DNA of 64,000 nucleotides from Acidobacteriota bacterium (GCA_021804655.1 JAJZHE010000001.1:2903-66902); one strand, 5' to 3'; positions 46,959-51,472 are shown, numbered from the stretch's first letter. Numbers and translations: made by a program. The notes: a model not told the origin generated them from the sequence alone.

Positions 46959-48059
46959 TTAATTCTTCGTCAATCCAGCCGCCATCGCATCCAGCGAAAG
47001 CGATCGCAGCAGATTGCGGCGCATACCTGCGTCTACAGCGTGCATCTCCCGAGTCGCGCGTTCCAGCCATTCCAGATCGATGCTCTGGGCCAGCGATTTC
47101 AACTCCGCCGTCGCGTCGCAGTTCCGCATCAGTTCCGTGGCTCCAGCATGCGCCAGCATCAGGTCTTCCACCAGTGAATGCAGGGCGCGCATCAGCCCTT
47201 GTGTCTTTGCCTGGCCTTCGCCACCCGCACGATAGCTTTCCGTCATGCGAAACAGCGCCGAATCATCCGGTTGCTGCAGTGCACATCGCAGTATCCCCAG
47301 CGCATCGTTTCGGCTACTCATCCACGCGGCCAGGTCAAATCCCAGCGCGCGTCCAACCGCACCTTCAGCCAGTCGGGAGACCAGCGTACGCTGGGCCGGT
47401 CTCAACTCCGGCCTGCGCTCGGCCAGCAAACGCTCCAGCATCTCGGTCGGCACCGCATGCAGGCGATGCAGCACGGCTCGCGAACGAATTGTCGGCAGCA
47501 ACTCCGACGGATTTTCACTCAGCAGAATCAGCGTGCAGTGCGCCGGTGGCTCTTCGAGCACTTTCAGCAGGCTGTTCGCGGCTTCTTTCATCAACGCTGA
47601 AGTGGTGAAAAGAAAAACTGACCGCCGCCCCTCACTGGGCGGGCGATAGTAGGCGTTGTGAATCACCTGCCGCACCTGTCCCACCTTGATAAGCATCTGC
47701 GGCGGGTCCGGTGGAATCACCATCACGTCCGGATGCGTCTGCACCAGAATGCGCGTCTCGCGCTTGTCCGTCTCGCGTAGATCCTCGCGCGCTTCCATGG
47801 CCTCAGCCACGCATGCATCCAGATCTTCCGCTGCGCCAATTCGTACGCAATTTTTGCATCGTCCGCAAAAATCCGGCAGACCATCGGTCTCCGTCGGTTC
47901 CAGGCAATTCAGCAGACGAGCAAACATCAACGCCAGCGTGTACTTGCCGGACCCTTTTGCACCGGCCAGAATCACAGCCTGCGGCACGCGATCCGTTGCA
48001 ACCGTTTCACGCAGTCGCTGCACTACCTGTTCGTTACCCAGAAAATCTCGAAAGCTCAC
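46959..48059 (-). CDS. holB: DNA polymerase III subunit delta'
   Basis: GAKGSGK, CGRCKNC, HPDV, AANSLLKVLEEPP, LLPTIRSR. Confidence 0.9.
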   Translation of the reverse strand: MSFRDFLGNEQVVQRLRETVATDRVPQAVILAGAKGSGKYTLALMFARLLNCLEPTETDGLPDFCGRCKNCVRIGAAEDLDACVAEAMEAREDLRETDKRETRILVQTHPDVMVIPPDPPQMLIKVGQVRQVIHNAYYRPPSEGRRSVFLFTTSALMKEAANSLLKVLEEPPAHCTLILLSENPSELLPTIRSRAVLHRLHAVPTEMLERLLAERRPELRPAQRTLVSRLAEGAVGRALGFDLAAWMSSRNDALGILRCALQQPDDSALFRMTESYRAGGEGQAKTQGLMRALHSLVEDLMLAHAGATELMRNCDATAELKSLAQSIDLEWLERATREMHAVDAGMRRNLLRSLSLDAMAAGLTKN

Positions 48060-48136
48060 AATCCGAGGCTATCAGATGCGCTCATCTCACTTCGATACCG
48101 AAAGCCGCCTGCTTCTCGCTGCGGTAAAATTCAGTT

Positions 48137-48475
48137 ATGCGGCGTCTGCTCCAGATCGGAACGCTTATTTTGTTGGCCACAACCATTCTGGTGCCGCTGT
48201 CGGAGTCTTTCGATCGCTGGGATGCTCCCGGCCTGAGCAACGACACCGAATTTCACCTCTTCGCCATCGTTCTTTTTCTTGCGCTCGTTCTGCTGCTGTG
48301 CCGCCATCTTGCCGCAGCTTCCGCATGGGTCATTGCTGTCTTCCAGCAATTCGTACTTCGGAATCTTCCGCTCAGAAAATTTTTCTGCAATGCGTTGCAG
48401 CCTGTCTTTGACGTGCCTCCTCTTGCATCTCCACATGCGACACACGCACTCTTGTTGTCCCAGCTTCGTATCTGA
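48137..48475 (+). CDS. Small 2-TM protein upstream of TBDR; candidate regulatory leader/arrest peptide
   Basis: TAAAAT-N6-ATG; two hydrophobic helices flanking ESFDRWD...NDTEF; Pro-rich tail ending LRI-stop. Confidence 0.75.
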   Translation: MRRLLQIGTLILLATTILVPLSESFDRWDAPGLSNDTEFHLFAIVLFLALVLLLCRHLAAASAWVIAVFQQFVLRNLPLRKFFCNALQPVFDVPPLASPHATHALLLSQLRI

Positions 48476-48588
48476 TTCCTCAGCGATTGCACGCGCCGTT
48501 TGGCGTGTCTGCGTCCTTGCGCGCCATTTGATTTTTTCAGCGCGTAAAAGGATGCCTGATTTTTCCGCATCGCGTCCTTCGAGGAGTC
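48474..48588 (+). promoter_or_regulatory. SD-sequestering multibranch RNA structure
   Basis: gattcctc (48474-81) pairs with gaggagtc (48581-88); gcgattgc pairs with gcatcgc; two internal hairpins. Confidence 0.7.
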
Positions 48589-48592
48589 TTTC

Positions 48593-51472
48593 GTGTCTCA
48601 TCCACTTCGTTTCACAGTCTTTTGCGTCGTAATTCTTTTGTTCGGTTTTGCAGCGCATGCTCAAACCACCGGCTCCATCGTCGGGCAGGTTCTTGCACCC
48701 GATCACTCGCCGATTGTCTCTGCTCATCTGACTTTAGTCACGCCGAATGGCCACACAGTCACGGCGGTTTCCTCGTCGATGGATGGCAGCTTTTCCTTTC
48801 AGAATTTAGCCAGCGGTTCGTACACTTTGCACACAGCAGCGGAGACTTTCCGCATTGCGGAAACTACGGGCATTGAAGTGGCCGTTGGACGTACAACCTC
48901 GCTCACCGTTTCTCTTCAGCTTGCCTCGGCTGCCGCCACCGTTCAGGTCTCCGCTGTCACGTCAGCGCTAGATCCCACGCAAACTTCGTCGGTGGTCAAC
49001 ATCGACCGTGATCGCGTCGAGGAACTTCCCATCCCGAGCCGCGATTACCTCACCTTTACGCTGCTTTCTCCGTTTGTCGCTGCCTCCAATCCAGCTCAAT
49101 CTGCGCAGACGCCGGGGGCAAGCTCCGGTGGATTCAGCTTTGGTGGCCTGCGTCCAACCAGCAACGCCATTCTGCTGGACGGCGTCAATGACGATGATGA
49201 ATTCATGGGCGGCAGCCGCACCGAGCTTTCGCCGGAAGCCATCAGTGACTTCCAGATCGTCAATCATGGCTTTCAGGCGCAATCCGGCGGAGCTGCCGGT
49301 GGCTCCATCGATGTCGCCACGCGCTCCGGCGTGAATCAACTGCACGGCGATGCCTTCACCTTTGTCCAGAATGGAGCGCTGAACGGCACACAGCCGCTTG
49401 GCATTTATCCGCGCAAGCCGGACGAAAATCGCGAGCGAGCCGGACTTTCGCTCGGCGGTCCCATCCAGCGTGACCGCACCTTCTATTACCTTGCTGCCGA
49501 GCAAGAGATTGCGCAGGGTGAGGATGTGACCGATCTCAGTCCCGACACGGTCAGCGCGATCAATGCTGCTGCACCGCGTTTTGGCGCTCTTGGCTCGCTC
49601 CAGCTTCACTCAGGTTTTTTCCCCACTACCGATCAACAGACGGAACTTTCTGCGCGACTTGACCGAACACTGACCAGTCGTGAAGCGTTGATGATGCGAT
49701 ACGCCTTCACGAATACGCGCAGCGTGGCGGATGCCTTCAACACGGATGACCTGACCGATCTCTCCGCGCGCGGGTCCACCTTTGTTGCCGACAACAGCAT
49801 CAACTCCACGTTGACCTCGACGCTGAGCGCCAACGGCCTGAACCAGTTGAACTTTGAACTAGCCCAGCGGCGTTTTGATGCTCGCACCGCCGACGCCACC
49901 ACTCCTGGGGTGTTCATCCCTGGCGTTGCGCTCTTCGGTACTCCTTACTTTGGCAACGATCGCCACTTTGAAACCCACGTTGAATTCTCCGACAGCTTTT
50001 CCCTGCAACATCGCAACCATCTCTTCCAGTTTGGCGCGCGCGCTGACCGCGTTGCGCTACGGGCATCCACGCCGGATGCGGCGCGCAGCTTCTTCGTCTT
50101 TCCAGACATTCCATCGTTCGCCGCGGGGAACGCCAGTTTTTTTGTGCAGAGCTTCGGTCAGCCAGACACCAACTTTGCCGAGGTGCGTTCCTCGGCCTGG
50201 GCGCAGGATCACTGGTCCGCGACGCATACGCTCACACTCGACTATGGCCTGCGCTGGGACGACAACCACCTGCCATCGCCGCTGCACCAGTCGCCGTGGA
50301 ACTTCAGTCCGCGCGCAGGTCTCGCCTGGTCGCCTTCCAGTCGGCTTCTGAAGCGGACCGTTGTGCGCTCCGGCTTCGGCCTGTTCTATGACAGATTTTT
50401 ACTCTCCACTCTCAACCGTCCGCTGGAGTGGAATGGCGTAACCGGTTTGACGCAGATTGCGGAAGGGGCATCGGCTGCTGCCATCTTTCGTCGGGGGATA
50501 CAAGCCTCACAGCCCTACGCCTCGCTTGCGCCGTCCGTCTTCACCGCGCAGCCTGCTCTGCGAAATCCTTACAGCGAAGTCGCCTCGCTCGAATTGGAAC
50601 GCGAACTGCCGCTGCAAACCACCGTGACTGCGACCTACCAGTTTGTCCACGGCGTACATCTCGGTCGCACGGTCAACGTCAACCTGCCGCCGCCCGCCAC
50701 GCTCACCAGCGGGAACGCAACCTCGCTCGGTCTCGCAGCGCCCGCGGCACAGCAGCTTGGCCAGCCCGTCTTCGGTCCTGCGCGCATCGATCCGGCCTTT
50801 GATGCAGTGAATCAGTTCTCCACCGAAGCCAACTCCAACTTCAACGGCGCTACGCTATCCGTCAATCGCCAGTTCCAGGACAATCTTGAAATCCTCGCCG
50901 GCTACACCTGGTCCAAAACCATTGACGATGCCTCTTACGATGCCGAACAGCCGATGAACCCGTACAACCTCTCAGCCGAGCGCGCTCTCTCGCTTCAGGA
51001 TCAGCGGAATCGTCTGACGCTGAGCGGTCTCTGGCTGGTCGGCCCTGACCTCGATGATCCTGCCGATGCTGTTGCCGCAGCCCATCCCAGCCCATTCATG
51101 CGCTTTGCCACAGGCTTCGAGTTCACGCCGATTCTCAGCGTCACCAGCGGCTTTCGCTCCAACCCGCTCACCGGTCTGGATACAACGCAGGCGCATATCT
51201 TTCCCTTTGCCGCGCGCCCCATCGGTTTTTCTCGCAATGGCCTGGTGACGCCTGCACAACTCGACTTCGATCTGCGCATCCTGCGCATGATTTCCATCGG
51301 AAGAGGTCATCTGGATGTCGTTGCGGAGAGCTTCAACCTGCTGAACCACACGAATATCTCGCTGCTGCAGGATGCCTTCGGCACAGCCGCCACGCCGATG
51401 CAGAACTTTGCCGCGCCGGTGAATACATCCACTGCTCGTCGCCTTCAGTTTTCACTCGATTACGAATTCTGA
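48593..51472 (+). CDS. TonB-dependent receptor (Oar-like)
   Basis: GAGGAG SD + GTG; ELPIPSR, TRSGVNQLHG, QDHW, FSPRAGLAW, ESFNLLNH, C-terminal YEF. Confidence 0.92.
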   Translation: MSHPLRFTVFCVVILLFGFAAHAQTTGSIVGQVLAPDHSPIVSAHLTLVTPNGHTVTAVSSSMDGSFSFQNLASGSYTLHTAAETFRIAETTGIEVAVGRTTSLTVSLQLASAAATVQVSAVTSALDPTQTSSVVNIDRDRVEELPIPSRDYLTFTLLSPFVAASNPAQSAQTPGASSGGFSFGGLRPTSNAILLDGVNDDDEFMGGSRTELSPEAISDFQIVNHGFQAQSGGAAGGSIDVATRSGVNQLHGDAFTFVQNGALNGTQPLGIYPRKPDENRERAGLSLGGPIQRDRTFYYLAAEQEIAQGEDVTDLSPDTVSAINAAAPRFGALGSLQLHSGFFPTTDQQTELSARLDRTLTSREALMMRYAFTNTRSVADAFNTDDLTDLSARGSTFVADNSINSTLTSTLSANGLNQLNFELAQRRFDARTADATTPGVFIPGVALFGTPYFGNDRHFETHVEFSDSFSLQHRNHLFQFGARADRVALRASTPDAARSFFVFPDIPSFAAGNASFFVQSFGQPDTNFAEVRSSAWAQDHWSATHTLTLDYGLRWDDNHLPSPLHQSPWNFSPRAGLAWSPSSRLLKRTVVRSGFGLFYDRFLLSTLNRPLEWNGVTGLTQIAEGASAAAIFRRGIQASQPYASLAPSVFTAQPALRNPYSEVASLELERELPLQTTVTATYQFVHGVHLGRTVNVNLPPPATLTSGNATSLGLAAPAAQQLGQPVFGPARIDPAFDAVNQFSTEANSNFNGATLSVNRQFQDNLEILAGYTWSKTIDDASYDAEQPMNPYNLSAERALSLQDQRNRLTLSGLWLVGPDLDDPADAVAAAHPSPFMRFATGFEFTPILSVTSGFRSNPLTGLDTTQAHIFPFAARPIGFSRNGLVTPAQLDFDLRILRMISIGRGHLDVVAESFNLLNHTNISLLQDAFGTAATPMQNFAAPVNTSTARRLQFSLDYEF

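Follow-up and report, generated by a model that had tools for sequence, protein, structure and literature searches.

The 64,000-nucleotide (nt) stretch of DNA analysed here, referred to as the window (Acidobacteriota bacterium, GCA_021804655.1 JAJZHE010000001.1:2903-66902; positions are counted from its first letter), comes from a mine-drainage metagenome. On its plus strand, a frame of 112 codons opened by an ATG at 48137 and closed by CTT-CGT-ATC-TGA, i.e. Leu-Arg-Ile-stop or LRI-stop (48137-48475, stop codon included), ends 117 nt before the GTG start of a co-oriented gene (48593-51472) encoding a TonB-dependent-receptor-like outer-membrane protein of 959 amino acids (aa). A -10-like hexamer, TAAAAT (48125-48130), lies 6 nt upstream of the ATG, and the last two bases of the stop codon belong to a segment, gattcctc (48474-48481), complementary to the Shine-Dalgarno (SD) region of the receptor gene, gaggagtc (48581-48588), which lies 5-12 nt before its start codon. 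This segment is called the anti-SD below and the short open reading frame (ORF) the leader, since we propose that it is translated to regulate, in cis, the gene that follows. An earlier reading of this DNA from its sequence alone had pictured a small membrane protein whose ribosome, paused at the stop codon, would switch on the receptor. All the coordinates on which that picture was built were verified against the window sequence and its sequence-level predictions were all borne out, whereas its central step (the ribosome pause, the relief of that pause and the direction of regulation) is still a matter of inference.

The leader protein is predicted to be a small inner-membrane hairpin protein and belongs to an unnamed family. 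Two transmembrane helices around an acidic loop had been seen in its sequence, and AlphaFold2 predicts helices at residues 2-27 and 37-86, with low confidence for the last 26 residues. Together with the conserved hydrophobic blocks in the alignments, the model places transmembrane helix 1 at about residues 4-21 (48146-48199), directly after a basic N-terminus (MRR), and transmembrane helix 2 at about residues 40-56 (48254-48304). Between them, conservation delineates the acidic loop, residues E23-E38 (E-S-F-D-R-W-D-A-P-G-L-S-N-D-T-E; 48203-48250), presumed to be a periplasmic sensor or a translocated segment. According to the positive-inside rule, both termini would be cytoplasmic and the loop outside. 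The tail, which is predicted to be disordered, contains Pro94-Pro95 (48416-48421), the equivalent of a PP pair of the family that is found here 17-18 residues before the C-terminus and some 9-10 residues before it elsewhere, and it ends with the codons of Leu110-Arg111-Ile112 and TGA (48464-48475), a candidate arrest motif on the grounds of its conservation in the family.

This family is large, yet nearly confined to one acidobacterial family. A word-indexed search returned 58 homologs of about 100 aa, and a profile search of a 50%-identity library (1.84 billion cluster representatives) returned 1070 clusters at E<=1e-3, including 373 at E<=1e-10. Members were found in 35 of 401 genomes sampled within the acidobacterial family (26 of 142 genera), and in a phylum-wide sample they were present in 13 of the 33 genomes from that family, as opposed to one weak match in 367 genomes from the rest of the phylum; the named records are from Acidobacteriaceae or from Edaphobacter metagenome-assembled genomes. 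Searches of the window protein against Pfam (E<=1) and NCBIfam gave no match, a Pfam search across 55 aligned diverse members gave no consistent family and a profile search of the PDB gave no relative. Scattered weak matches to unrelated membrane families were put down to hydrophobic bias. No description of the family was found in the literature searched.

In the alignments, the parts follow each other as in the window: a basic N-terminus, a hydrophobic helix, the acidic loop, a second hydrophobic helix, a linker of about 40 residues that is not conserved and a conserved C-terminus. The loop, in which the FDxWD and NDTE elements had caught the eye, is kept by the homologs with a consensus E-x-x-D-x-W-D...D-x-E, in which E23, D29 and D36 are invariant and P20, D26, W28 and E38 are at least 90% conserved (55 diverse members), while divergent members have a His-containing variant, DHWDH...G-x-D-x-E. 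The length of the protein is fixed (median 102 aa, 10th-90th percentile 101-106), and from the last Glu of the loop to the C-terminus there are most often 63-66 residues despite the variable sequence of the linker. The terminal LRI-stop is kept as well. When 100 non-redundant complete proteins were right-aligned, Ile was found at position -1 in 95%, Arg at -2 in 93%, Leu at -3 in 97%, Pro at -4 in 84%, Pro again at -9 (67%) and -10 (49%) and Val, Ile or Phe at -11 (66%), giving the consensus [VIF]-P-P-x3-4-P-L-R-I-stop, with a TGA stop in 91 proteins and TAG in nine. The motif abuts the stop codon in essentially all members. In a wider set, the LRI ending is present in 119 of the 147 best cluster representatives, and most of the others are one-residue variants. 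Two apparent exceptions are probably broken or fused genes. In one (L106, 1495-1791), the PLRI codons are found just past the called stop in another frame, which is read as a frameshift or an assembly error; in the other (L110, G345:C1), the hairpin continues in frame into a 376-aa PAP2-like protein, whose counterpart is a separate gene in a relative (L103), which looks like a fusion or a frameshift into the PAP2 gene. Three further proteins (L020, L059 and L091) are longer and lack the C-terminal motif.

The nature of this constraint is informative, since P-L-R-I is spelled with every one of the six Leu codons, with five Arg codons and with four Pro codons, and such synonymous variety means that it is the peptide that is constrained and not the nucleotides. 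On this evidence, we take the 112-aa ORF to be a real gene under peptide-level selection. A purely RNA leader in which the ORF is not translated, or else a small protein that serves as precursor peptide for radical SAM enzymes, is thereby made highly improbable. The radical SAM genes that follow four divergent members and the missing SD before the ORF speak for such a reading; however, the amino acids are kept through synonymous changes, frame and length are kept in more than 100 loci, the lack of an SD is explained by a fixed -10 box (see below), most members including the window copy have no modifying enzyme nearby and an Rfam scan of 47900-48800 at E<=1 produced no match. The precursor reading, i.e. 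a ribosomally synthesised and post-translationally modified peptide, was prompted by the radical SAM neighbours and was rejected for the main clade, where these are missing.

How the leader is expressed can be gauged from the promoter region. The proposal that it is leaderless, made because its ATG follows the TAAAAT box so closely, gained support from 103 non-redundant homologous loci (with start codons ATG in 67, GTG in 33 and TTG in 3). In 58 of these loci, the distance between the end of a TAnnnT hexamer and the start codon is exactly 6 nt; it is 7 nt in 11 loci and 8 nt in five, with 0-3 at most other offsets, and an SD-like motif is found upstream of the leader in only 10. This fixed geometry is what a transcript starting at the start codon requires (48137 in the window), and a leaderless messenger RNA (mRNA) with a fixed -10 box would account for the lack of an SD. 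One sub-clade has instead a TATAAT 11 nt upstream of the start, implying a very short untranslated 5' end there. These offset statistics replaced a generic sigma-70 scan, which also required a -35 box and found no consensus promoter. Many database entries (P0065, P0108, P0115 and P0123 among others) have 20-110 extra N-terminal residues. The probable reason is that gene callers see no SD before the presumably leaderless ORF and place its start further upstream, so that members of the family are likely to be systematically annotated as too long in public databases.

At its other end, the leader runs into a conserved RNA structure. The sequence-only reading had proposed that the anti-SD pairs with the SD region, with a second tier of pairing below it and two hairpins inside, and RNAfold of 48460-48600 reproduced this architecture. 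The anti-SD pairs with 48581-48588 in both the minimum free energy (MFE) and the centroid structures, thereby sequestering the SD, and the second tier (48483-48573) joins gcgattgc (48483-48490) to gcatcgc (48567-48573) and encloses the hairpins 48491-48508 and 48511-48555. The fold (-49.7 kcal/mol, z = -3.29) is matched in stability by one of 200 dinucleotide shuffles. The same arrangement recurs across the family. In 58 loci, the leader stop and the start of the next gene are separated by ~95-135 nt. Right after the stop, U is found at +1 in 89% and C or U predominates at +2 to +5, and the anti-SD begins 0-3 nt after the stop. When 69 non-redundant intergenic regions were folded one by one, the MFE structure joined the SD window to the stop-adjacent segment in the great majority, typically enclosing two internal hairpins. 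A few loci (L019, L083 and L027), for which the automatic choice of start codon was evidently wrong, were left out by a 90-135 nt filter. The internal hairpins occupy the same relative position in several loci (L012, L016, L041, L065 and others), with a nearly constant spacer of about 105 nt, and related spacers share sequence blocks such as g-u-g-c-g-c-c after the anti-SD. Their possible roles include folding kinetics, a protein site and the control of RNase or Rho action.

The pairing between anti-SD and SD is maintained across the family in a form particular to each lineage, in that a change in the bases flanking the SD core is accompanied by a matching change in their partners (e.g. ucuccagaga/ucucuggaga, ucuccgg/ccggaga, ucccg/cggga, uuccuc/gaggag and cuccuga/ucaggag). 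In an alignment-free duplex test, the 25 nt next to the stop and the 31 nt before the downstream start bind with a mean of -19.0 kcal/mol in cognate combinations versus -13.5 kcal/mol in non-cognate ones, and none of 10000 permutations reached the cognate mean. In a 21-sequence subset, RNAalifold recovered the outer stem with AU<->GC and GC<->AU compensations; 91.8% of the cells are paired and 10 show double changes, which was equalled in one of 500 shuffles, and the paired percentage falls sharply when the partners are slid against each other. RNAalifold on a MAFFT alignment of all 56 intergenic regions, which is misregistered on the 3' side, gave no pairs. Covariation in the classical sense, which the sequence-only reading had anticipated, is limited by the fact that the SD core can hardly vary, and it is in its flanks that the expected change of partners is found. 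Since they recur in more than 100 related loci, the features of the leader and of the RNA are far beyond chance.

An intergenic structure of this kind could also act at the level of transcription, as with TnaC or CruR: a ribosome that has reached the leader's end would control Rho loading or the formation of a terminator in the ~105-nt spacer, and the SD pairing would be secondary. CruR does work via Rho, the start of the spacer is pyrimidine-rich and one of its two conserved hairpins is followed by a short U run (48556-48565). However, a terminator scan of the spacer was not convincing (a stem of 5 bp only, with counts within shuffle expectation), and what is complementary to the stop-adjacent segment in a lineage-specific manner is the SD/start region, which points to control of initiation. 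We consider attenuation improbable as the main mechanism, while noting that attenuation and initiation control could coexist.

The genes found after the leader provide another line of evidence. The 959-aa protein in the window, the presumed regulated product, matches OMP_b-brl_4 (5e-86, 290 bits), CarboxypepD_reg at its N-terminus (1e-12) and TonB_dep_Rec_b-barrel (2e-7, 31.4 bits for a cutoff of 27) in Pfam, whereas its match to Plug (8e-4, 20.3 bits) is under the curated cutoff of 23.9. The leader is followed in most loci by an ortholog of this protein (57-82% identity) that starts ~100-117 nt past the leader stop. Divergent leaders, which still end in (P/S/A)LRI-stop and often have the His-containing loop, precede other genes. 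As expected from the sequence-only reading, which had named receptors and efflux systems as the downstream class, receptor-like genes follow in most loci and efflux genes in divergent ones. In two of the latter (L125, G344:C36; L126, G410:C2), the leader is the first gene of an operon encoding an outer-membrane efflux protein (OEP), a membrane fusion protein (MFP) and a CusA/CzcA-type resistance-nodulation-division (RND) pump (TIGR00914, 688 and 680 bits), with the czcCBA gene order; the loop is DQWDAPG in L125 and DRWDHT, with His, in L126. This placement parallels that of CzcI, a DUF2946 protein, upstream of czcCBA in Cupriavidus. In two others (L127, G100:C41; L135, G080:C18), the leader heads an ATP-binding cassette (ABC)-ATPase/HlyD/FtsX-permease(/OEP) operon of the MacAB-TolC type. 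PAP2 phosphatases, B12-binding and other radical SAM enzymes and a ferric-reductase-like membrane protein complete the range of downstream genes.

Nine of 15 such divergent loci show significant complementarity (z<=-2) between the stop-adjacent segment and the SD region predicted for the new neighbour, which is strong in L123/L127 (z = -3.7). A radical SAM gene, for instance, is preceded by the pair uuaccucucc/ggagagguaa and a PAP2 gene by ccuggau/auccagg. Pairing with the SDs of different genes means that the conserved unit is the leader plus its stop-adjacent anti-SD rather than the leader plus the receptor, which indicates that the leader is a portable regulatory unit.

The reading that we favour, with a probability of roughly 0.55, is that of a translated cis-regulatory leader whose terminating, and probably arrested, ribosome unmasks the downstream SD. 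The mRNA of the operon would start at, or within a few bases of, the leader AUG. The leader would be a membrane hairpin with both termini inside, whose acidic loop would cross the inner membrane while the tail is still being synthesised. At the stop codon, the nascent [VIF]-PP-x3-4-PLRI tail (QLRI in the window) would slow peptide release from within the exit tunnel, i.e. cause a termination arrest, and the ribosome parked there would cover the next 12-15 nt, which are the anti-SD, so that the long-range stem would open and free the SD and start codon of the receptor gene. Upon fast release, the stem would re-form and the receptor would be poorly translated. Because helix 2 and the loop keep a fixed distance to the C-terminus, we suspect that the pause is timed co-translationally, by the fate of the hairpin and its loop at the membrane, for which the candidate controls are the pulling force of insertion, a translocation of the loop dependent on the proton-motive force or on YidC, and a cation bound through the invariant E/D/W/(H) residues. 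The invariant acidic and Trp (and His) residues, together with the CzcCBA-like neighbours, suggest the last of these. A short acidic loop between two helices, as in M13 procoat and MifM, is a hallmark of insertion that depends on YidC and the proton-motive force. By analogy, the leader might alternatively report on insertion capacity or on the energisation of the membrane.

Several features argue that the ribosome dwells at the stop codon rather than passing through. The near-invariant tetrapeptide must abut the stop; a second conserved element lies about 9-11 residues upstream, which is the distance from the peptidyl-transferase centre to the constriction of the tunnel; the linker is unconserved, fixed in length and predicted to be disordered; the hairpin is placed so that helix 2 would be just out of the tunnel when the stop codon is reached; and the module is reused before unrelated genes. 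This pattern of motif, length and spacing is, by analogy, that of known arrest peptides. The effect of such a ribosome on the RNA was modelled at equilibrium by making the mRNA unavailable for pairing up to 13 nt beyond the stop codon, as if this codon occupied the A site, which raised the unpaired probability of the SD from 0.17 to 0.34 in the window and from a mean of 0.25 to 0.48 over 58 loci.

A rival account would be plain translational coupling with normal, fast termination, in which the leader is a functional small membrane protein, such as a stable inner-membrane subunit or accessory, the anti-SD does no more than make translation of the downstream gene conditional on that of the leader, and PLRI-COOH is a cytoplasmic protein-level motif, e.g. 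a degron or a partner-binding tail. The architecture of the stem would work with any terminating ribosome, and the loop and hairpin, not the tail, are the most conserved parts of the protein, which could reflect the function of the mature protein. A free C-terminal tetrapeptide can indeed act as a recognition tag. Nevertheless, one accessory is unlikely to suit partners as unrelated as an outer-membrane barrel, a CzcCBA-like RND system, a MacAB-like ABC system, a PAP2 protein and a radical SAM enzyme, an unconserved linker of fixed length followed by a predicted disordered tail is typical of tunnel-resident arrest segments and not of a binding domain, and the immediate contact of the motif with the stop codon is hard to explain in these terms. 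Coupling thus appears less likely than the arrest, although it is the most serious competitor.

The arrest itself has to contend with a number of difficulties. PLRI-stop resembles no characterised arrest motif, and a literature search combining PLRI with ribosome stalling found nothing; the PP of the tail is not a strong polyproline stall. Any terminating ribosome transiently opens a stem next to its stop codon, so the RNA architecture alone needs no arrest, and in the equilibrium models blocking the anti-SD only doubles the accessibility of the SD, an effect that is not all-or-none. The feedback logic that is classical for monitoring substrates cannot be invoked, since neither Sec nor YidC components are encoded downstream. 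Six of the 15 divergent loci have no significant pairing at the predicted start sites, and the window copy is itself slightly atypical, being 10 residues longer than the family median and ending in QLRI instead of PLRI. Finally, the pause, its cause, the signal that would release it and the direction of control are all inferred from sequence patterns.

Comparison with characterised systems helps to place the leader, which would work like CutF, CruR, MifM and CliM without being homologous to them. The closest parallel is CutF of Rhodobacter capsulatus, a DUF2946 protein, in which stalling of a co-translationally exported sensor melts a stem shielding the SD of cutO; CutF/DUF2946 members are found upstream of metal-handling genes including czcCBA (CzcI). 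Common to both are a small protein encoded first in its operon, co-translational targeting to the membrane and an extracytoplasmic sensing motif (both presumed for the leader), a C-terminal Pro-containing stalling segment (a candidate one in the leader) and an intergenic anti-SD stem-loop. However, CutF has a cleaved Sec signal, a CxxxC motif and an internal PPP, where the leader has a two-helix hairpin, an acidic E/D/W loop and PLRI at the stop, and CutF is unrelated in sequence to the leader, which is probably leaderless and all but restricted to Acidobacteriaceae. The DUF2946 profile of Pfam matched neither the window protein (E<=1) nor any of the 55 diverse members (E<=0.1), the loop has no Cys pair and the C-terminus is PP-x-PLRI-stop and not RAPP or PPP.

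CruR of Bordetella pertussis, another DUF2946 protein, is encoded by an upstream ORF (uORF) that controls the TonB-dependent transporter BfrG, with a fixed spacing between sensor and arrest motif. Its arrest occurs during elongation at RAPP, with Pro-Pro in the P and A sites; it has a CXXC site for copper and acts through Rho-dependent termination. What the sequence-only reading had stated about CruR, DUF2946 and RAPP agrees with the published papers, and its remark that the leader has no RAPP motif is correct. The leader shares with CruR the position of the uORF before a TonB-dependent-type gene, a conserved C-terminal motif and the fixed spacing, but it also has no Cys motif, and its own conserved feature is the sequestration of the SD next to the stop.

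MifM of Bacillus subtilis and CliM of Clostridia are found upstream of yidC genes, and their stalled ribosome opens a stem holding the downstream SD. In Clostridioides difficile CliM, the arrest takes place at the stop codon, where the penultimate residue blocks accommodation of the release factor. Here too the leader has the N-terminal transmembrane segment, the variable linker, the C-terminal motif and the downstream SD in a stem. In MifM and CliM, however, the downstream insertase releases the arrest in a feedback loop, whereas the genes downstream of the leader are outer-membrane receptors and efflux systems; the motifs are unrelated, and the leader has two helices and a conserved, presumably translocated loop. 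Arrest with a stop codon in the A site has been documented for NSP-stop, NAP-stop and DGMK-stop, which resemble the leader in having a conserved short motif directly before the stop but end in Pro or Lys (Trp in PepNL), none being L-R-I. TnaC differs in responding to a small molecule within the tunnel and in acting on Rho.

The leader thus displays the architectural features of the SecM/MifM/CliM/CutF class: a small co-oriented ORF directly upstream, a predicted N-terminal membrane element, a C-terminal peptide motif after a variable linker and a partner of the SD within the footprint of a ribosome at the putative arrest site. It departs from the Sec/YidC monitoring substrates (SecM, MifM, VemP, CliM and ApcA/ApdA/ApdP) by the identity of the downstream gene. 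We rate it as a new family with a new candidate arrest motif, built on a known regulatory logic. A bolder hypothesis, to which we give somewhat less than even odds, is that [VIF]-PP-x3-4-PLRI-stop on a leaderless two-helix hairpin defines a hitherto undescribed, Acidobacteriaceae-wide class of termination arrest that serves as a co-translational transmembrane sensor. The state of the loop, through cation binding or a translocation dependent on proton-motive force or YidC, would set the dwell at the stop and hence the output of a receptor or of a metal or drug efflux pump. Such a class would be convergent to the proteobacterial DUF2946 proteins and would use a new stalling chemistry.

The surroundings of the leader can be described briefly. 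The upstream neighbour is divergent (46959-48059, minus strand) and encodes a 366-aa protein with a Walker-A-like GAKGSGK motif, which looks like a clamp-loader subunit (DNA polymerase III delta-prime-like). Only 77 nt separate the start of this gene from the leader ATG, so the two promoters must be tightly packed. An ORF of 198 aa runs antisense over the whole leader and spacer (48131-48727, minus strand). No sign of its being a gene was noticed, no homology search having been made with it, and it is read as a by-product of GC-rich, structured sequence.

Arrest peptides that report extracytoplasmic events amount to a handful of families (SecM, MifM, VemP, CliM, the RAPP peptides and CutF/CruR), nearly all of which were discovered either through their position before sec or yidC genes or through searches for RAPP. 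The leader family came to light by neither route and has no known stalling motif, yet it bears all the architectural signatures of the arrest class, and its roughly one thousand sequence clusters are ready-made natural mutagenesis data. Its presumed leaderless start is unusual in that a leader initiated by 70S ribosomes would gate SD-dependent initiation downstream. The presumed targets are TonB-dependent-receptor-like proteins, a group that has expanded enormously in Acidobacteria and is poorly understood there, and, in other branches, efflux pumps for heavy metals or of the ABC type. Should the stall prove real, it would represent a new peptide chemistry for blocking release factors (with Arg as the penultimate and Ile as the last residue), it would mean that co-translational transmembrane sensing has evolved independently in a second phylum and it would provide a handle on envelope sensing in bacteria that are abundant in soil and mine drainage.

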